Origin: an uncultured Kriegella sp.
GTDB taxonomy: Bacteria; Bacteroidota; Bacteroidia; Flavobacteriales; Flavobacteriaceae
Assembly (NCBI RefSeq): GCF_963975415.1
Contig: NZ_CAXBGN010000011.1
Location: 67,410 to 131,409, forward strand
Direction: 5' to 3'
DNA length: 64,000 bases
Shown: positions 37,117 through 49,060 of the stretch, one piece after another
Numbering within the stretch: position 1 is the stretch's first letter
How the letters are laid out: each line of letters begins with the position of its first letter
Translations under genes and position numbers: made by a program
Notes under the pieces: generated by a model
Told to the model about the DNA's origin: nothing
What the model saw: only the letters and a program-made list of their open reading frames with translations
The model's database searches: none

Positions 37117-37161
37117 TGTAACTTTTGTTACTTCATAGCATTGTTATTTCTGTTATTTTTG
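37117..37161 (+). promoter_or_regulatory. Operator TGTAACTTTTGTTACT plus -7 box TATTTTTG (czc operon promoter)
   Basis: The palindrome spans 37117-37132 (centre 37124.5). A perfect TAnnTTTG lies at 37154-37161, 29.5 nt from the centre. Half-sites and phasing match the site at 47987-48002. Confidence 0.65.
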
Positions 37162-37166
37162 TTTCT

Positions 37167-37568
37167 ATGGTCAAGCTATTTTCCATACTGATGTCTAGTC
37201 TGATGTTGATTCAAAGCTTCGGTATTACCTTTGGTGATATTGTACAATTGGACGAATTTATGGAGCATGCCAATTTTCATGCGGAAAAATACGGGGATAA
37301 TTTACTCGTGTTTATTTCAAAACATTATGGTGAATTAAAGGAACAGCATAGTAACGACCACAAAGAAGAAAAAAGAGACCACGAAAACTTACCCTTTCAA
37401 AACAACGGCCATTGCACTTCATCGTCTTTTGCTATCGTATTCAGTACCTTTTCGTCCGAATTAAAGTCACTTCAAAACCTGGAAGATAAAGTGACCAATT
37501 TCTACTATCCGCTTCCTTCCTCCTCCTTGCATTCTACAGGTACATTTCAACCTCCCCGATTCGTATAA
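37167..37568 (+). CDS. Small His-rich secreted protein, first gene of the czc operon
   Basis: The ATG at 37167 gives a signal-like N-terminus (MVKLFSILMSSLMLIQSFG). There is a His/Glu-rich middle (EQHSNDHKEEKRDHEN). The track's TTG start at 37125 lies upstream of the predicted promoter. Confidence 0.55.
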   Translation: MVKLFSILMSSLMLIQSFGITFGDIVQLDEFMEHANFHAEKYGDNLLVFISKHYGELKEQHSNDHKEEKRDHENLPFQNNGHCTSSSFAIVFSTFSSELKSLQNLEDKVTNFYYPLPSSSLHSTGTFQPPRFV

Positions 37569-37659: not shown

Positions 37660-40600
37660 ATGCTATCACGTATCATAGATTTTAGTATTAAGAACAAATT
37701 TGTTGTTCTCTTGTTTACAGTATTTATATTCGGGTTCGGAGTCTATTCGCTTTCTCAAATCCCCATTGGGGCGGTTCCTGATATCACCAACAATCAAGTT
37801 CAGGTAATCACTACCTCACGTAATTTGTCGACCCAAGACATGGAACAGTTCATAACCTATCCTGTTGAATTGGAAATGGCAAATTTGCCCGGTGTGAAGG
37901 AGATTCGCTCCGTTTCAAAATTTGGACTTTCGGTTGTGACTATAGTTTTTGATGAAAATTTAGGCACTTATTTACCGCGTCAACTTATTGCCGAAAAAAT
38001 AAAATCAGCCTCCGAAAAAATACCGGAAGGATTTGGAACTCCTGAAATGGGACCGATTTCGACAGGATTAGGAGAAATCTATCAATACACCTTGGACGTA
38101 GAACCAGCGTTCAAAGATCGGTATTCCACAGAAGATTTACGTACAATTCAAGACTGGATCGTAAAACGCCAACTTTCCGGTATCCCGGGGGTTGTAGAAG
38201 TAAATACATGGGGAGGTCTTCTAAAGCAATATGAGGTCGCCATAAAGACCGAGAAATTAAATGCGATGAACATTACGGCACACGATATTTTCACAGCCTT
38301 GGAAATGAACAATAGCGTAAGTGGTGGGGGCTATATCGAAAAGGTGAATCAAGCTTATTTTATACGTGGCGAAGGGCTGGTGACATCTTTGGAAGACATT
38401 GAAAACATCGTGGTCAAAAATGTCAACGGTACTCCAATTTATGTAAAAAATGTGGCTGAAGTAGGTTTTGGAAGTGCCCTTCGTTTTGGCGCCATAACAG
38501 GAAATGCGGAAGGAGAAAAAGTTCTCGGCCAAGTTATGATGCTCAAAGATGCGAATTCAAAAAAAGTAATCGATGCCGTTAAAGAACGTGTAGCCTCAAT
38601 ATCGAAATCGTTACCTCAAGGCGTCTATATCAATGCTTTTTTAGACCGTAGCGACCTTATTGGCAAGACTACGTTTACCGTAACGGAAAATCTTGTGTTG
38701 GGCTGTTTGATCGTCATCTTTGTCGTAGTTCTATTATTGGGTAATTTTAGATCGGGGCTGGTCGTAGCATCGGTCATACCGCTTAGCTTGCTCTTTGCGC
38801 TCTCATTGATGTACATTTTTGGTGTTGATGCGAATCTAATGAGTCTGGGAGCCATAGATTTTGGGATTATTATCGATGGGGCCGTAATCATCGTGGAATT
38901 TATCGCCTTTCAAATTACCCAACGTAAATCGGAAATCGATGCATCGTCTCAACAATCAAATACTGAAAAGCAAGCGCTAAAAGACGAAATCACCTTTAAT
39001 GGTGCATCTAAAATGATGAACTCAGCCATATTCGGACAACTTATTATTCTCATCGTTTTTATTCCGATTCTGTCGCTAAGTGGTGTTGAAGGCAAGATGT
39101 TCAAACCCATGGCATTGACCTTCAGTTTCGCGCTTATTGGGGCCATGGTTTTCTGCTTTACGTATGTGCCCGTCGCTGCATCATTGTTCTTAAAACCCTC
39201 TAAAAATTCCAATAAAAATATCTCAGTTCGCTTGATGGCCTGGATCAATAGACGTTACGACCCTATTATTGATTGGGCCTTACGCAGCAAATCTATCGTA
39301 TTGGCTACAGCACTTCTTTTATTAAGTATTTCGATATACATATTTACAACCATGGGCAGCGAATTCGTACCCACATTAGACGAAGGGGACTTTGTTATTC
39401 AACCTGTTTTAAAAACAGGAACTTCCTTGAGCAGCACCATAGAAAAGACGACGCAAATTGAAAAAATATTGATTGACAATTTTCCTGAAGTAAATCAAGT
39501 GGTTACCCGTATTGGTGCGGCCGAAGTACCTACCGACCCGATGTCGATGGAAGAAAGCGATGTCATCATCACATTGAGACCCAAAAAAGAATGGGTTTCT
39601 GCCGATTCAAAAGACGAATTGGCCAATAAATTTAAGGAGGCCCTTTCTGTCGTTCCGGGTATGGAAGTAGAGTTTACACAACCCATTGAAATGCGTTTTA
39701 ACGAACTTATTACAGGTGTTCGGGCCGATATTGCCATCAAAATTTTTGGGGAAGACTTAGGCATCCTTTCAGAAAAAGGAAACGAAATTAAATCGCTTAT
39801 TTCAAATGTTGCGGGCGCAGCAGACATTTCAGTTGAAAAAGTCGTTGGTCTACCGCAAATGAATGTTACCTACAATCGTGCTAAAATCGCGCGTTATGGC
39901 CTTAATATTCATGATATAAACAATTTGGTTTCTATGGGTTTTGCAGGAAAAACAGCGGGAAGCGTTTTCGAGGGAGAAAAGCGGTTTGACCTCGTAATGC
40001 GGTTAGAGAAAAAGAATAGACAAGATATCGACAACCTTAAAAATCTTTATGTCGATTTGCCTGCGGGCGGCAAAATCCCCTTGAGCGAACTTGCCGAAAT
40101 AACATACAAAAAAGGAGCAGCCAAAATCTCACGCGACGATACAAAACGTAGAATTGTGGTAGGTGTGAATGTCCGTGACCGCGACCTTCAATCAGTGGTC
40201 GATGATGTTCAAAGACTGATTGAAGAAAATATAAACCTACCCATTGGATATTCCATTACTTACGGCGGCCAATTTGAAAATCTACAAAGTGCAAGAGCCA
40301 GATTATTGATTGCTGTGCCCATTGCACTACTGCTTATTTTTGTCTTATTGTACTTTGCTTTTAAATCGGTCAAGGAGGCACTATTGATTTACTCCGCTAT
40401 TCCCCTTGCCGCGGTTGGCGGTATATTGTTGCTATGGATAAGAGGCCTGCCATTTTCCATCTCCGCCGGCGTGGGCTTTATAGCTTTATTTGGCATCGCG
40501 GTACTTAATGGCATCGTGTTGATCGAGCATTTCAAGGAGCTTAAGAAACAGCCATTTACAACTATAGATGCACTTATTAAACAAGGTACCCAAGACCGCC

Positions 40601-42003
40601 TACGAGCGGTTTTATTAACAGCGTCGGCAGCCGCTTTGGGCTTCTTGCCCATGGCGATATCGACCAATGCAGGAGCAGAGGTACAGCGGCCACTTGCGAC
40701 GGTTGTCATTGGTGGCCTTTTTACGGCTACCATACTTACGCTCGTTGTGCTTCCGGTTCTCTATGCTTTATATAATAAAATGGAAAAAAAGAACAAGAAA
40801 TCATCATCCATAAATATTGCTACGATGATAACTGTGGCTACGTTCTTGTTCGGAATGGGCGCACAAGCCCAGGGATCACCAAAAGAATTACAAGAATTGA
40901 TTCCTATGGCCATTGAAAATAATGCGGCGTTAAATGCGGATCAATTGGAAACATTCCGTACCAACGCGCTAATAAATAGTGCCTTCAGTTTTAACAAAAC
41001 GCATCTTTATTATGAATATGACGAGAACAACCTTGCCATCAATGAGGTGCCATTAGATGTCATTGGCATACAGCAAGATTTCTTGTTTCCTACAGTTTAC
41101 TTTGCTGAAAAACGAGTAAATAAGAATACTTACAAACTGGCAACGAATAGTTTCGAAATTCAGAAAAAAGCCCTAGAACGTGCTGTGACGGCTACTTATT
41201 ATGAGTTTCAATACGCAAAGAAAAAAGAAAACATCTACAGGCAATTAGATAGTTTGTATGCCGAATTTTCAAGTAAAGCCGCGCGAAAATTTGAATTAGG
41301 AGCCACCACCTATCTGGAGAAAATTACAGCCCAATCGAAAAGACGACAAATTTCTGTGCAGTTTGAAAAGGCACAAATAGACGTAGAAATCGCCTATAAG
41401 GCGTTAATGAAATACGTTCAGGTAGAAGAACCTTTGGAAATTGCCGTTGAGCCGGCCACTAAAGCACCTCTTAGAGCGATAGCGCTGTCGGACAGTCCCG
41501 AGTTGGATTTTTACAATAACAGAATTTCGTTGGCCAGGGCCACAAGCGCTTTTGAAAAGCAAAAATTACTCCCCGATATTTCATTCAATTATTTTCAAGG
41601 AACCAATTCGCAGCTCAACAACAATCTCTACGGTTATCAATTAGGGCTTAAAATACCCCTGTTTTTTAGCGGACAATCATCACGTATTAAGGCTGCAAAA
41701 ATTGCATCCGACATTGCAACTAAAGAATCGGAGGAATATAACATTCAATTGAATGCCCGATTACAAGAACTGCTTGATGAGTTGGGCAAATATGAAAAAG
41801 CACTTATTTTTTATAAAGAAGAAGGTACAATGCTTTCTACGGAAATTCTTAAGACTGCAAACGGAAGTTTTAAAAATGGAGAAATAGATTTTTATCAATA
41901 TATCCTAAGCCTGGAAAATGCGTATCAAGTGCAGCTAGACTACCTAGAGAATCTCAACCGATACAACCAGGCAGTCATCAAAATCAATTATATCACTCTT
42001 TAA
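37660..42003 (+). CDS. CusA/CzcA-family heavy-metal RND transporter fused in frame to a TolC/CzcC-like outer-membrane factor
   Basis: 1447 aa. Residues 1-1040 form a complete 12-TM RND pump. Residue 1041 is a Met that begins a signal-peptide-like stretch (MEKKNKKSSSINIATMITVATFLFGMGAQAQ). About 400 aa of TolC-like helical/beta repeats follow. Confidence 0.85.
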   Translation: MLSRIIDFSIKNKFVVLLFTVFIFGFGVYSLSQIPIGAVPDITNNQVQVITTSRNLSTQDMEQFITYPVELEMANLPGVKEIRSVSKFGLSVVTIVFDENLGTYLPRQLIAEKIKSASEKIPEGFGTPEMGPISTGLGEIYQYTLDVEPAFKDRYSTEDLRTIQDWIVKRQLSGIPGVVEVNTWGGLLKQYEVAIKTEKLNAMNITAHDIFTALEMNNSVSGGGYIEKVNQAYFIRGEGLVTSLEDIENIVVKNVNGTPIYVKNVAEVGFGSALRFGAITGNAEGEKVLGQVMMLKDANSKKVIDAVKERVASISKSLPQGVYINAFLDRSDLIGKTTFTVTENLVLGCLIVIFVVVLLLGNFRSGLVVASVIPLSLLFALSLMYIFGVDANLMSLGAIDFGIIIDGAVIIVEFIAFQITQRKSEIDASSQQSNTEKQALKDEITFNGASKMMNSAIFGQLIILIVFIPILSLSGVEGKMFKPMALTFSFALIGAMVFCFTYVPVAASLFLKPSKNSNKNISVRLMAWINRRYDPIIDWALRSKSIVLATALLLLSISIYIFTTMGSEFVPTLDEGDFVIQPVLKTGTSLSSTIEKTTQIEKILIDNFPEVNQVVTRIGAAEVPTDPMSMEESDVIITLRPKKEWVSADSKDELANKFKEALSVVPGMEVEFTQPIEMRFNELITGVRADIAIKIFGEDLGILSEKGNEIKSLISNVAGAADISVEKVVGLPQMNVTYNRAKIARYGLNIHDINNLVSMGFAGKTAGSVFEGEKRFDLVMRLEKKNRQDIDNLKNLYVDLPAGGKIPLSELAEITYKKGAAKISRDDTKRRIVVGVNVRDRDLQSVVDDVQRLIEENINLPIGYSITYGGQFENLQSARARLLIAVPIALLLIFVLLYFAFKSVKEALLIYSAIPLAAVGGILLLWIRGLPFSISAGVGFIALFGIAVLNGIVLIEHFKELKKQPFTTIDALIKQGTQDRLRAVLLTASAAALGFLPMAISTNAGAEVQRPLATVVIGGLFTATILTLVVLPVLYALYNKMEKKNKKSSSINIATMITVATFLFGMGAQAQGSPKELQELIPMAIENNAALNADQLETFRTNALINSAFSFNKTHLYYEYDENNLAINEVPLDVIGIQQDFLFPTVYFAEKRVNKNTYKLATNSFEIQKKALERAVTATYYEFQYAKKKENIYRQLDSLYAEFSSKAARKFELGATTYLEKITAQSKRRQISVQFEKAQIDVEIAYKALMKYVQVEEPLEIAVEPATKAPLRAIALSDSPELDFYNNRISLARATSAFEKQKLLPDISFNYFQGTNSQLNNNLYGYQLGLKIPLFFSGQSSRIKAAKIASDIATKESEEYNIQLNARLQELLDELGKYEKALIFYKEEGTMLSTEILKTANGSFKNGEIDFYQYILSLENAYQVQLDYLENLNRYNQAVIKINYITL

Positions 42004-42013
42004 TTAAGCACTT

Positions 42014-43147
42014 ATGAAAAATTCTATATATCGAACATTCATTTTAATCACATCTCTTATTACCCTCAGTTGTGGTGACAATACCAAGGAAACCACAGAT
42101 AAAGAAGCCATCGGCGATGACCGTATCAAGTTAACCAAGGCCCAATTCGAACAAAATAATATGGCATTAGGCACCTTATCTGAAAAAGAATTTCCCGTAA
42201 TCGTAAAAGCGACCGGAATGATAGATGTTCCACCGGAAAACCGTTCGGTAGTTAGTGCTACTATGGGAGGTTATATTAAGACCCTGCCCCTACTTATCGG
42301 TGATGTCGTCAAAAAAGGCCAAGCAATACTCACTATTGAGAATCCTGAATTTGTAACCTTACAACAAGAGTACATGGAGATTAGGCAGCAATTGGACTAT
42401 TTAAAATCGGAATACGACCGCCAGAAAATAATGTTCGATGAAAACATCACTTCGCAAAAGAGCTATTTAAAAGCCGAGAGCGAGTACAAAACTGCACAGG
42501 CAAAGGCTACTGGTTTTCATAAACAATTGAAAATGCTCAATTTTTCCCCTGCTGCCGTCGAAGCTGGAAATATCGCTTCCGTAACCACAATATACGCACC
42601 CATTTCGGGAAGTGTGACCAAAGTGAACGTGACCAAGGGTAGCTATGTAGCACCAGCAACGGCCATTCTTGAAATTATCGACAACAGCCACATTCATTTA
42701 GAACTATCCGTTTTCGAAAAAGATATTATGAAAGTTAAAAAAGATCAGAATATCACTTTTAAAATTCCCGAAGCATCACCAGATTCATTTGAGGCTGAAG
42801 TACATTTGGTGGGCACAGTTATCGGGGAAGGTCGCACTATAAAGGTGCACGGGCATCTAATGGAAGAAGAAAAAAACCACTTTTTAACAGGAATGTTCGT
42901 CGAAGCCGACATTATTACGGCCACCGCCCATGCCAAGGCCTTGCCTGACCAATCAGTAGTGAACATAGGAGACAAAAATTTTATACTCGTACTAGATAGT
43001 GAAGCCGATGGCAATTACTACTTCAATCAGATGGAAGTAGACGTGAAGGATAACTATAAAGGCTATACGTTGATTCAAAATGAACAGAATTATCGGCCCA
43101 CGGTTAAATTTTTGACCAAGGGAGCCTTTAATCTATTAGGAGAATAA
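42014..43147 (+). CDS. RND efflux periplasmic adaptor (membrane fusion protein, CzcB-like), lipoprotein
   Basis: 377 aa with lipobox (LITLSC), a lipoyl/hairpin/beta-barrel MFP pattern, and a position directly after the pump gene. Confidence 0.85.
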   Translation: MKNSIYRTFILITSLITLSCGDNTKETTDKEAIGDDRIKLTKAQFEQNNMALGTLSEKEFPVIVKATGMIDVPPENRSVVSATMGGYIKTLPLLIGDVVKKGQAILTIENPEFVTLQQEYMEIRQQLDYLKSEYDRQKIMFDENITSQKSYLKAESEYKTAQAKATGFHKQLKMLNFSPAAVEAGNIASVTTIYAPISGSVTKVNVTKGSYVAPATAILEIIDNSHIHLELSVFEKDIMKVKKDQNITFKIPEASPDSFEAEVHLVGTVIGEGRTIKVHGHLMEEEKNHFLTGMFVEADIITATAHAKALPDQSVVNIGDKNFILVLDSEADGNYYFNQMEVDVKDNYKGYTLIQNEQNYRPTVKFLTKGAFNLLGE

Positions 43148-46210: not shown

Positions 46211-46408
46211 CTATTCTTTTGATGATTTCCCACCAAAAGTATTGAAGAGCAATCCGCCCATTACCCCTCCATAAAGGGTACTATTCAATGGTTTAGAAGT
46301 TATGGCACAAGTACCACTCATACAACCTATTTCAACATAGTATAGATAACCTGCAATGGCACCGATTGCGGCACCAATAATTGTTATGATAATAATTTTT
46401 GATGTCAT
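46211..46408 (-). CDS. Small membrane protein with a C-x5-C motif
   Basis: 65 aa counted from MTSK. It has two Gly-rich hydrophobic helices flanking GCMSGTC. The track's longer 98-aa version adds a Cys-rich non-hydrophobic leader, which is uncertain. Confidence 0.5.
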   Translation of the reverse strand: MTSKIIIITIIGAAIGAIAGYLYYVEIGCMSGTCAITSKPLNSTLYGGVMGGLLFNTFGGKSSKE

Positions 46409-46673: not shown

Positions 46674-47663
46674 TCACTCATCAAATTTAATGGCCCAAAT
46701 ACCGCGCACCTCATTACTATCGTAACCGACGGCCATATCTTCGGGATAACGCTCTTTCAACATGGCCAAAGTTTCAATCCCAATTTCCTTCTCAGGTTTT
46801 CCGTGACATTGCAGGCACATGGCGTTAGTGGTAATCGGAAAATAAAAATCAACCTCCCCGTTGGCTACGTTAATTATGGGTTTGACCTCATCTTCAGATG
46901 CTACGATACGCTTAAACAATTCAATGTATCCCAATTCTTCCGTATTGGCCCTATTTTTGGCATTTCGGGGCTTATCGGAAACTCTTTTGATAATGGCATT
47001 TTTCATGACCGAGATGCTATCTGTCAATTTAAGCGCTTCAACATTGCAAAATGATACCGCCCCTACCGTTCCCCTGGTCTGAATGGCTTTCATTAGGTTT
47101 TTGCCCAATGTAGTTTTGGCGGTCAAGACATATTCCATTCCTATATCGGTGTAGTCGGTTTGATCGCCGTCAAACAACATACACTCGCAATCGGCCAATC
47201 CTTTTCCTTTTCTATGCGCTTTCTGAAAATGAGCATCCCACCAATCCGGTTTTTCAAGATCATTATCAAAAATATAATCGGCCACCTGTTTTAAAGCTTC
47301 ATCCGGATAAGGTAAATAAGGCATGGCTCCAAACCTTTTATGAACTCCGGGCATTCTTGTTTTTGTTTCTGGATCGTTCACCCAGCGAATCAAGTCTTCA
47401 GTGAAAGCTTCCCTTGTAGTACTCGAGTCGATATAATGCTGCTTTATAGCCACCATAGGCGGCGCAATCATACTGGATCGGGAAGTTTTTGGGTTATGGC
47501 ATATTTAACATTCGTTTTCTAAAAATTTCTTTCCAGGGTGTGACTTCGCAATTTCTGTCAGATGATTATCGGAAACCTTCCGAACCGGCTTTTTTTCAGT
47601 TTGCTTACCATCGTTACAGCCGACAAATATTATTGCGAAAACGAAGTAGATTAGAAACTTCAT
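46674..47663 (-). pseudogene. Lipoprotein di-heme c-type cytochrome / DUF3365-like heme sensor protein, interrupted by an in-frame TAA
   Basis: The ATG at 47663 (ATGA overlap with the upstream stop) gives a lipoprotein signal MKFLIYFVFAIIFVGC. The frame stays continuous to 46674 except for a TAA at 47505-47507, read as ENEC-stop-ICHNPKTSRSSMIAPPM. A second intact motif, CLQCH, lies near the C-terminus. Confidence 0.7.
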
Positions 47664-47932
47664 GATTTCGACAATTTTAAGGCAACGCCCCTTGTAAACG
47701 AAAAAGTTTTCTTAGAGGTGGAGCTTCTATAATGTATGGAAGGATATCCTATTGCCTTAAGCACTTCTTTCACCACCAAGGCATCATTAAAATTCTCATA
47801 CACAAAGGAAACCCTGGCCAAATCAACATCAACGGTTATATTTGAAATTGTCGGAAGCTCTGATAATTTTGAGATAATGGCCTTTTTACAAGCGCTACCC
47901 TTTAAGTTTTGAACGATAATCGAAGTTTTCAT
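47660..47932 (-). CDS. HMA-like (ferredoxin-fold, heavy-metal-associated-type) small protein lacking the CxxC motif
   Basis: 90 aa with a beta-alpha-beta-beta-alpha-beta pattern typical of HMA domains. GSAC replaces GMxCxxC. Confidence 0.45.
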   Translation of the reverse strand: MKTSIIVQNLKGSACKKAIISKLSELPTISNITVDVDLARVSFVYENFNDALVVKEVLKAIGYPSIHYRSSTSKKTFSFTRGVALKLSKS

Positions 47933-47957: not shown

Positions 47958-48003
47958 TAAAATTATGAGCTTAATAAATATTATGCTGTAACAACAGTTA
48001 CAG
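47958..48003 (-). promoter_or_regulatory. Operator CTGTAACAACAGTTACAG plus -7-like box (promoter of the HMA-like/heme-c operon)
   Basis: A perfect 7+4+7 palindrome spans 47986-48003 (centre 47994.5). On the minus strand, TAATTTTA has its first T at 47965, offset 29.5 nt. Confidence 0.6.
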
Positions 48004-48034: not shown

Positions 48035-48439
48035 TTACATTTCAAGAAGTAGGCGGAGCTTTGTCAAAAGATTCAATTCCAATGTATTTGCACTCCGAAA
48101 TGATAATGCAATATCGCATGCGGTCTTCCAAGTCAATTGTTTGATTTTTAAATTGAACTGTTGGGAGTGCTCCTTGTAAAAGGCCGCAAATTCTTCAAAG
48201 TAGTGTTGGCTTTCTTTTTCTTCTTGCTGCAACCAATCAAAAACAATGGCTATCTGATACGCTGCATCAGTACCATATTCGTCTTCCGCCCCATCGACTG
48301 AAAGCCAAAACGTATGCACATTTTTATTCAATTCGGCTACTTCTATCGGCCTTACCACTTTGTCTGCTATGGCGATGGCATAAAACAACTTTCCCAAGCT
48401 TTGGTAAAGTTCATTTGTTATTTTTTCTTTTGATATCAT
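48035..48439 (-). CDS. TerB-like (tellurite-resistance TerB/DjlA N-terminal type) helical protein
   Basis: 134 aa with a TerB-like N-terminus (LGKLFYAIAIADKVVRPIEVAEL). Confidence 0.45.
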   Translation of the reverse strand: MISKEKITNELYQSLGKLFYAIAIADKVVRPIEVAELNKNVHTFWLSVDGAEDEYGTDAAYQIAIVFDWLQQEEKESQHYFEEFAAFYKEHSQQFNLKIKQLTWKTACDIALSFRSANTLELNLLTKLRLLLEM

Positions 48440-48543: not shown

Positions 48544-48981
48544 TCAATCCTTCAAATGACCTTGTAATTTTTCGCTGTCGATTACGTACTCGGTAATTTT
48601 AAAAAGCTGCACCCTATGCTGCCTTACCCTTTTAATGAATTCGGCCAATTCATCTTCAAGCTCTCCATGCTCCGTTCTAAAGCGCTTCGAATCATTATCG
48701 GTACTGTTTGCCAAATGGGACAGGTGTGCGTCTACCCTGCCCAAGAGTTCCTCACATTCTCTCGTAGCTTTCAAGATAGTTTCCCCAACCCTCCTTACAT
48801 CATCTAAATTGGCTTGGTCCTCAATCCATACAAAATATTTATCCACCAAATGACGTAGAAATCTAAGGTCATCTTTATAGAATAAAAGATCTGATTTCCA
48901 ATGCCCGGTCAAAATGTACAATTCTTGCCATTTACTGTTTTGAATGGAATTACTTTTTGGTCTACTTCTAAAACTTTCCAT
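48544..48981 (-). CDS. Small helical protein, member 1 of a three-paralogue family of unknown function
   Basis: It shares W-x-S-x-L-x-F-x2-D-[DE]-x2-F-[LI]-x2-L-x3-Y, L-x-R-[VI]-x-[AS]-H and a second invariant His with the genes at 57660 and 59613. The start is moved to the ATG at 48981 because the track's ATG at 49038 lies upstream of the predicted -7 box. Confidence 0.6.
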   Translation of the reverse strand: MESFRSRPKSNSIQNSKWQELYILTGHWKSDLLFYKDDLRFLRHLVDKYFVWIEDQANLDDVRRVGETILKATRECEELLGRVDAHLSHLANSTDNDSKRFRTEHGELEDELAEFIKRVRQHRVQLFKITEYVIDSEKLQGHLKD

Positions 48982-49017: not shown

Positions 49018-49060
49018 CAAAAGTACTTTTGATTTCAAGCTTTTAGTATGATATTTGTCA
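49018..49060 (-). promoter_or_regulatory. TGAY-N4-RTCA box plus -7 element (promoter of paralogue 1)
   Basis: TGATATTTGTCA at 49049-49060 (centre 49054.5). On the minus strand, TACTTTTG has its first T at 49025, offset 29.5 nt. Confidence 0.7.

Follow-up and report, generated by a model that had tools for sequence, protein, structure and literature searches.

What protein binds the two palindromes of the type TGTAAC-N4-GTTACA in this DNA, and to what signal would the operons behind them respond? The palindromes lie in the window, by which we mean the whole stretch of 64,000 nucleotides that was analysed, and whose closest named relative is Kriegella aquimaris. Marine members of the Flavobacteriaceae account for much of the breakdown of algal and particle-bound organic matter, and sediments, sinking particles and oxygen-minimum zones all expose them to sulfide. 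The answer at which we arrive is that both palindromes are probably bound by a Crp/Fnr protein that would serve as a class II activator of a sulfide/persulfide regulon. The path to this answer leads from the two sites to their counterparts in relatives, and from there to the genes that the sites precede and to a regulator gene that accompanies them.

Two palindromes in front of two operons

Site 1, CTGTAACAACAGTTACAG, is a perfect 7+4+7 palindrome in a minus-strand promoter, with its core TGTAAC-N4-GTTACA at 47987-48002. Its centre, at 47994.5, is 29.5 nt from the first T of the minus-strand -7 box TAATTTTA. Site 2, TGTAACTTTTGTTACT, has one mismatch to TGTAAC-N4-GTTACA and is centred on 37124.5, which places it 29.5 nt from its own box, TATTTTTG, as well. 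The coordinates thus agree with a sequence-only reading of the window, which had described a perfect palindrome at this distance from a -7 box, and a second copy, with the same spacing, in front of a czc operon. Both sites have the symmetry of class II promoters, with half-sites of 5-6 bp about a 4-bp spacer. The predicted elements, and the genes behind them, are these:

47986..48003, minus strand: site 1, predicted Crp/Fnr dimer site, centred at -41.5 of the HMA/cytochrome operon promoter
47958..47965, minus strand: -7 box TAATTTTA, whose first T (47965) is -12; predicted transcription start at about 47953, with a 21-nt 5' UTR
47660..47932, minus strand: HMA-domain protein, 90 aa (Pfam PF00403)
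46674..47663, minus strand: lipoprotein di-haem cytochrome, a fusion of cytochrome c and a Tll0287/DUF3365 haem-Cache domain (Pfam)
46211..46408, minus strand: DUF6132 small membrane protein with a GCxSGTC motif (Pfam), a possible operon member
37117..37132, plus strand: site 2, predicted Crp/Fnr site, centred at -41.5 of the czc operon promoter
37154..37161, plus strand: -7 box TATTTTTG; predicted transcription start at about 37166
37167..37568, plus strand: His-rich leader protein of the czc operon, 133 aa, with no Pfam match
37660..42003, plus strand: CusA/CzcA-family heavy-metal RND pump fused to a TolC-like OEP domain, 1447 aa (TIGR00914; Pfam ACR_tran and OEP)
42014..43147, plus strand: HlyD/CusB-type membrane-fusion protein (Pfam)

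How readily might such sites arise by chance? With at most one mismatch, sites 1 and 2 are the sole matches in the window, against 0.14 expected, and two matches were reached in 1 of 100 shuffles of the window. With at most two mismatches the count is not significant, being 4 in the window against 2.7 expected. When up to four mismatches were accepted and a phased TAnnTTT[GA] box was demanded, the scan of the window returned the two sites and one match at the level of chance (53954; 4 mismatches, 28.5 nt).

The genes had been correctly named from the sequence as an HMA protein, a cytochrome c-DUF3365 protein and czc efflux genes, and Pfam and TIGR00914 concur, the pump scoring 1162 bits on the latter against a cut-off of 701. 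The czc leader protein matches that of an uncultured Kriegella sp. with 100% identity. The HMA and cytochrome genes overlap by 4 nt, and within the cytochrome gene the cytochrome c domain is N-terminal and the Tll0287/DUF3365 domain C-terminal. The DUF6132 gene lies 265 nt 3' of the cytochrome gene, across a gap that has neither a TGTAAC site nor a clear terminator. The HMA/cytochrome and czc operons are the only targets of TGTAAC sites in the window; there is no sqr or pdo gene in its 64 kb, and no Crp/Fnr gene is evident among its open reading frames.

Several details of these genes deserve mention. The cytochrome gene has an in-frame stop at 47505-47507 (minus strand) in place of the Tyr of the first haem motif, CYICH, which splits a 329-aa protein into open reading frames of 52 and 265 aa. 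The same split into 52 and 265 aa is found in the gene calls of contigs L001 and L002 (ERR2002982); in L003, in K. aquimaris and in all other homologues the gene is intact, with a homologue length of 329 aa. Pseudogene formation, variation between strains or an error in the assembly could each explain the stop. The HMA protein of the window reads KGSAC where the family consensus, from 53 relatives, is KCGGC, so that this copy is without the first Cys of the canonical CxxC metal/thiol motif. At the czc promoter, 5 nt separate the end of the -7 box from the annotated ATG, in the window as in the Kriegella clade and in Pseudozobellia; given the predicted start of transcription, either the mRNA would be leaderless or the in-frame ATG at 37191 would serve as the translation start.

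The window holds a second family of boxes, [AC]TGAC-N4-[GA]TCAT, which we call stress-island boxes:

43990, 49048 (minus strand), 53131 (minus strand), 54326, 55671, 56565, 58917 (minus strand), 62401: stress-island boxes, eight copies

All eight are exactly 29.5 nt from a -7 box, in keeping with the earlier claim that the two families share one geometry; they precede Usp genes, a LytTR regulator and a pair of genes for proteins of 145 and 134 aa. A search for the stress box in the form TGTGAC-N4-GTCACA gave nothing meaningful in the window. The gene pair (48035-48439 and 48544-48981, both on the minus strand) encodes small proteins without Pfam families, which recur directly upstream of TGTAAC sites in many relatives. 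In the window, the pair stands behind the stress-box promoter at 49048 (minus strand) and reads towards site 1, and read-through from it into the HMA operon is possible.

An operator family and its promoters

Does the palindrome recur where the cytochrome recurs? We collected 80 Flavobacteriaceae loci (937,762 nt), retrieved with the cytochrome family and limited to one genome per species. With at most one mismatch they contain 137 sites, against 1.75 expected from first-order Markov simulations, in which the maximum was 4. In 103 of the 137, the first T of a -7 box is exactly 29.5 nt from the centre of the site; no other offset occurs more than 7 times, and the background frequency of the box is 0.0013 per position. 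The cytochrome loci have 146 sites per Mb; a set of 80 metagenome loci, picked by way of an unrelated gene, has 19 per Mb. Because the 80 loci are phylogenetically related, the 137 sites are not independent events, yet they come from many genera, and the gene families behind them number more than a dozen. The core of the motif logo is circular, since the pattern itself was used to select the sites. Sampling through the regulator gene described below gave loci from Dokdonia (5 sites) and Aquimarina (3 sites); every site is at 29.5 nt, and they precede genes for DUF983-Crp, TauE, PDO-Rhd, rhodanese, peroxiredoxin and SQR. Orthologues of the DUF3365 gene in relatives had been named as a place to look for further copies, and the phased sites found there support the view that TGTAAC-N4-GTTACA represents a real, conserved operator family with a fixed promoter geometry. 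A LacI/cre-type operator (TGTAA..TTACA) was considered and rejected: the N4 is A/T-rich without CG, the position is rigid, and no LacI gene is co-localised.

How well are the window's own promoters conserved? At the HMA promoter, both half-sites and the -7 box are kept in K. aquimaris and in an uncultured Kriegella, while the N4 and the flanks vary. At the czc promoter, 15-16 of the 16 bases and the -7 box are kept in five contigs of the Kriegella clade (L164-L168; 80-83% protein identity), and the upstream flank there is unalignable. The proposed link between the two operons holds in that clade. It does not extend far beyond it: the czc site is absent from all 4 genome loci with the same leader gene outside the clade and from 79 of the 80 metagenome loci, the sole exception, L084, having a spacing of 30.5 nt. 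We take the czc connection to be real but recent, and limited to the Kriegella clade.

The class II position of CRP and FNR is -41.5. Where do the TGTAAC sites lie relative to the start of transcription? In the map of transcription starts of F. psychrophilum, the sigmaA box TAnnTTTG covers -12 to -5 (PMC9723704). With the -7 boxes of our loci placed there, a distance of 29.5 nt puts the centre of the site at a predicted -41.5, and NtcA in its class II position has GTA-N8-TAC centred at about -41.5 (PMC3898017). In the aligned sites, position 16 is T in 63% and position 17 is G in 65%, 20 nt before the -7 box; we read these two bases as a degenerate -33 TTTG element, overlapped by the proximal half-site. 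The site itself would extend from about -49 to -34, across the -33 element, and 65% of the -7 boxes end in A (TAnnTTTA) rather than in the consensus G. A degenerate -33, sub-consensus -7 boxes and a site over the -33 together indicate that the bound protein is most likely an activator; weak promoters with a site fixed at -41.5 argue for activation. E. coli CRP and FNR at class II promoters share the centre at -41.5 over the -35, the symmetric site and the degenerate upstream promoter element, and the FNR site (TTGAT-N4-ATCAA) has the same 4-bp centre; what differs here is the half-site, the -33/-7 architecture of the promoter and the sensor chemistry.

Might the same protein, at the same sites, be a repressor instead, one that occludes the -33 element and is released by sulfide or persulfide? 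The overlap of site and -33 element would suit such a role, and the persulfide sensors CstR, SqrR and BigR are indeed repressors. One would expect, however, that the sites of a repressor tolerate varied positions, as they usually do, and the rigid -41.5 seen at 103 promoters is what marks class II activation. With the -33 reduced to '..TG' and most -7 boxes below consensus, moreover, these promoters would be weak without an activator. We regard repression as possible, if unlikely.

Regulon, candidate regulator and signal

What do the sites control in relatives? The counts below are loci in which the given gene is the first behind a TGTAAC site, with identities taken from Pfam and the PDB:

27 loci: metallo-beta-lactamase (MBL) plus double-rhodanese protein, of the persulfide dioxygenase-rhodanese (PDO-Rhd) type
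18 loci: type II sulfide:quinone oxidoreductase (SQR), E = 1e-100 to human SQOR
12 loci: TauE/SafE
12 loci: the cytochrome c-haem-Cache gene itself
10 loci: 1-Cys peroxiredoxin
10 loci: sulfite-oxidase-like (SorA-like) molybdoenzyme with a cytochrome partner
8 loci: 114-aa rhodanese
3 loci: CydA
3 loci, the window among them: HMA-like protein
2 loci: SulP
2 loci: TolC

The usual order is regulator, site, PDO-Rhd, rhodanese, HMA and cytochrome, followed by another site and SQR. As judged from these families, the gene set is that of a sulfide/persulfide oxidation regulon and is neither a metal nor an NO regulon. The description of the targets as metal-related operons, which the window by itself invites, therefore does not survive the comparison with relatives, where the regulon comprises SQR, PDO-rhodanese, TauE, rhodanese, SorA-like enzyme, peroxiredoxin and cytochrome bd.

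Only one Crp-type family recurs in the loci, a protein of 210 aa with cNMP_binding and HTH_Crp_2 domains, about 80% identical across genera and annotated generically as 'Crp/Fnr family transcriptional regulator'. Of the 61 loci with sites, 40 encode it, against 2 of the 19 without (Fisher p = 3.5e-5), and 32 of its 42 copies have a site within 300 nt. This co-localisation, with the phasing at -41.5, supports the original assignment of the palindromes to a Crp/Fnr-type regulator. Given that the window itself has no such gene, the presence of the regulator in this genome is surmised from the conservation of the sites. In many loci the regulator is the second gene of a two-gene operon, after a small DUF983-like zinc-ribbon membrane protein (L033 2181-3214, L169 6618-7633 and L170 6600-7636 are examples). 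The operon comes with a TGTAAC site of its own at 29.5 nt, which points to positive autoregulation and to a possible partner of the regulator in the membrane.

Does the recognition helix fit the site? In alignment with CRP, Arg180 and Arg185 are kept and Glu181 has become Val. The Val is invariant (R182 V183 in P0121), and the helix reads SSRVV[IV]SRLL, or R-V-x-x-x-R. Half-sites of the GTAAC type have been linked to loss of Glu181 (Rodionov et al. 2005, PMC1274295). NtcA is among the best PDB matches of the regulator and has the same Arg-Val (STRVTVTRLL against SSRVVISRLL). The 16-mer had been said to fit the NtcA pattern, and it does: GTA-N8-TAC fits, and the regulator carries NtcA's Arg-Val. 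The two systems share the outer motif TGTA-N8-TACA, the position at -41.5, membership of the Crp family and the Arg-Val at CRP 180/181. They are not orthologous, however, the regulator scoring 31.8 bits on TIGR03697 against a cut-off of 244.95. In contrast to NtcA, the sites here have two extra conserved bases per half-site (AC/GT) and a Bacteroidetes -33/-7 promoter, the targets are those of sulfur oxidation rather than nitrogen genes, and the protein has a Cys triad where NtcA has a 2-oxoglutarate pocket.

The triad is invariant and has the form C-x5-CC (Cys77, Cys83 and Cys84); by alignment it stands where CRP binds cAMP. An AlphaFold model of the regulator has a moderate pLDDT of 75.7 and is poor around the triad, so that the thiols cannot be placed. 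A role for the conserved Cys as sulfane-sulfur sensors is plausible.

We picture the system as follows. A dimeric Crp/Fnr factor, conserved across the Flavobacteriaceae, would bind both palindromes at -41.5, in the class II manner, with the helix SSRVV[IV]SRLL and its NtcA-like Arg-Val at 180/181 fitted to the half-site TGTA-AC. Sulfide-derived reactive sulfur, the presumed effector, would act on the Cys triad of the sensor domain at the place of CRP's cAMP. The site overlaps and would replace most of the -33 element, and the regulator would recruit sigmaA RNA polymerase, presumably as an activator. The conserved output would be a regulon for sulfide/persulfide oxidation and detoxification, and in the Kriegella-like genome the regulator would drive the HMA/cytochrome operon and a lineage-specific CzcCBA-type efflux operon. 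The parts of this picture differ in strength. On the evidence of the target genes we favour sulfide or persulfide, with some confidence, as the most likely signal. That the Crp/Fnr protein is itself the reactive-sulfur sensor of the Flavobacteriaceae, with C-x5-CC in a former cyclic-nucleotide pocket and activation from -41.5, we put forward more tentatively.

Other signals can be imagined. The Cys triad might hold an Fe-S cluster as in FNR, so that the protein would sense oxygen or redox state and hypoxia, where sulfide accumulates, would switch the regulon on. Invariant Cys could ligate a cluster, cytochrome bd and peroxiredoxin are among the targets, the stress-box regulon nearby (Usp genes, PFK, PEPCK) resembles one for hypoxia, and in L028 and L066 the regulator gene stands behind a stress box. 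The conserved Cys number only three, however, and they lie in the beta-roll, with no N-terminal cluster motif of the FNR type; the core targets, moreover, are sulfur-specific enzymes. We think an oxygen or redox signal unlikely.

A related issue is whether soft metals (Zn, Cd, Cu) could bind the triad. One might think so from the window, where both targets have metal-type domains (HMA; the CusA/CzcA pump), and from relatives, where the HMA family consensus retains CxxC and TolC-first efflux operons with sites occur in L006 and L045. Against this, the czc site occurs outside the Kriegella clade in a single metagenome contig only, the window's HMA copy is without its first Cys, and the large majority of targets are SQR, PDO, TauE, rhodanese and SorA, which makes a metal-responsive regulator decidedly unlikely.

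What of nitric oxide, suggested earlier from an HcpR-type consensus? The consensus, GTAAC-N4-GTTAC, is real: it is the motif of HcpR2, a Crp/Fnr protein that has likewise lost Glu181, and it is identical to ours (PMC1274295). HcpR2 sites precede hcp, and the regulator gene adjoins hcp (PMC1274295). Signalling-type DUF3365 domains bind NO (bioRxiv 10.64898/2026.02.01.703092), so that an HcpR2-type regulon for NO or nitrosative stress has something to recommend it. The same preprint, however, reports the cytochrome c-DUF3365 fusion to be exclusive to Flavobacteria, and for haem-Cache proteins that stand alone or are fused to a cytochrome it proposes 'redox-related roles' rather than NO sensing. 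Among the 82 loci (about 13 kb per genome) no hcp was recognised; the check, made with no dedicated hcp profile, covered representatives of recurrent families, the starts of all families of 480-640 aa and Pfam on ten site-proximal families, and in L169 and L170 it went through the pipeline's Pfam annotation. Cytochrome bd and peroxiredoxin act in nitrosative stress too, but the other targets (SQR, PDO, TauE, rhodanese) are those of sulfide oxidation, and the regulator has Val where HcpR2 has Pro at the Glu181 position. An NO signal is thus very unlikely.

The last alternative, that nothing is regulated here, the upstream 134-aa gene having its intrinsic terminator at site 1 and site 2 having arisen by chance, can safely be dismissed: a consensus scan does flag site 1 as terminator-like on the minus strand (7-bp stem, tail CATAATATTT), but the hairpin is weak (z = -1.4), the T-tail is absent from K. 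aquimaris, so few sites are expected per window by chance, and across the relatives the sites track promoters at a fixed distance, not gene ends.

Returning to a sulfide- or persulfide-responsive activator, how would it compare with known sensors? CstR (CsoR family), SqrR/BigR (ArsR family) and FisR (a sigma54 activator) govern regulons whose content matches that of the relatives, the shared members being sqr, persulfide dioxygenase, rhodanese and a TauE-type (sulfite) exporter. The protein here belongs to none of their families (CsoR, ArsR, sigma54-EBP), and class II activation is its probable mode of action. As the persulfide sensors known to us are from other families, and CstR, SqrR and BigR repress, a Crp/Fnr activator has no known precedent for this signal. 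In literature outside subscription journals we found neither a Crp/Fnr sulfide sensor nor the motif in Bacteroidetes, and no description of a Crp/Fnr regulator paired with a sulfide-oxidation regulon. If confirmed, the protein would bring the families of known sulfide/persulfide sensors to five, with a family and a mode, class II activation, unlike those of CstR, SqrR/BigR and FisR. The cytochrome c-haem-Cache fusion and its HMA partner would become a component of sulfur oxidation, and an orphan family would gain a physiological context. What is on offer is a testable regulon: a 16-bp motif, a rigid geometry, one named regulator candidate and three cysteines that may be the sensors.

Exchange of boxes, and a leader element

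Are the TGTAAC box and the stress box read by two relatives of one protein? Paralogous Crp/Fnr regulators had been proposed for them, and some promoters bear on the proposal. In L085 and L086, two close relatives of L084, the czc leader gene has a stress box, ATGACCCAGGTCAT, at the same position and at 29.5 nt. In L035, a Kriegella MAG, a paralogous HMA-cytochrome operon stands behind a stress box, and L028 and L066 have one upstream of the Crp/Fnr regulator gene. Since the stress box replaces the TGTAAC box at equivalent promoters, the boxes are interchangeable there, and this exchange lends support to two paralogous regulators with one mode of action. The TGTAAC family is best accounted for by a Crp/Fnr-type regulator with a recognition helix unlike that of whichever protein would read the stress box. 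Two Crp/Fnr boxes that are one symmetric base apart, and that are swapped at orthologous promoters, make a clean natural case of regulon rewiring.

A further element accompanies the regulon. Some 60-100 nt upstream of the 114-aa rhodanese gene lies a conserved sequence, TTGGTTGGTTG, together with a hairpin of 11-15 bp that is often followed by a T-run (L025 5215-5285, L008 5236-5300 and L017 5488-5550 are examples). The exact 11-mer is found in about 30 of 54 loci. The window has no copy, and the leader has no match in Rfam. The element is placed in long 5' leaders behind TGTAAC promoters, and also between genes within the operon. RNAalifold on 12 copies gave 15 pairs, 13 of them with compensatory changes, and the element is a candidate attenuator or protein-binding leader.
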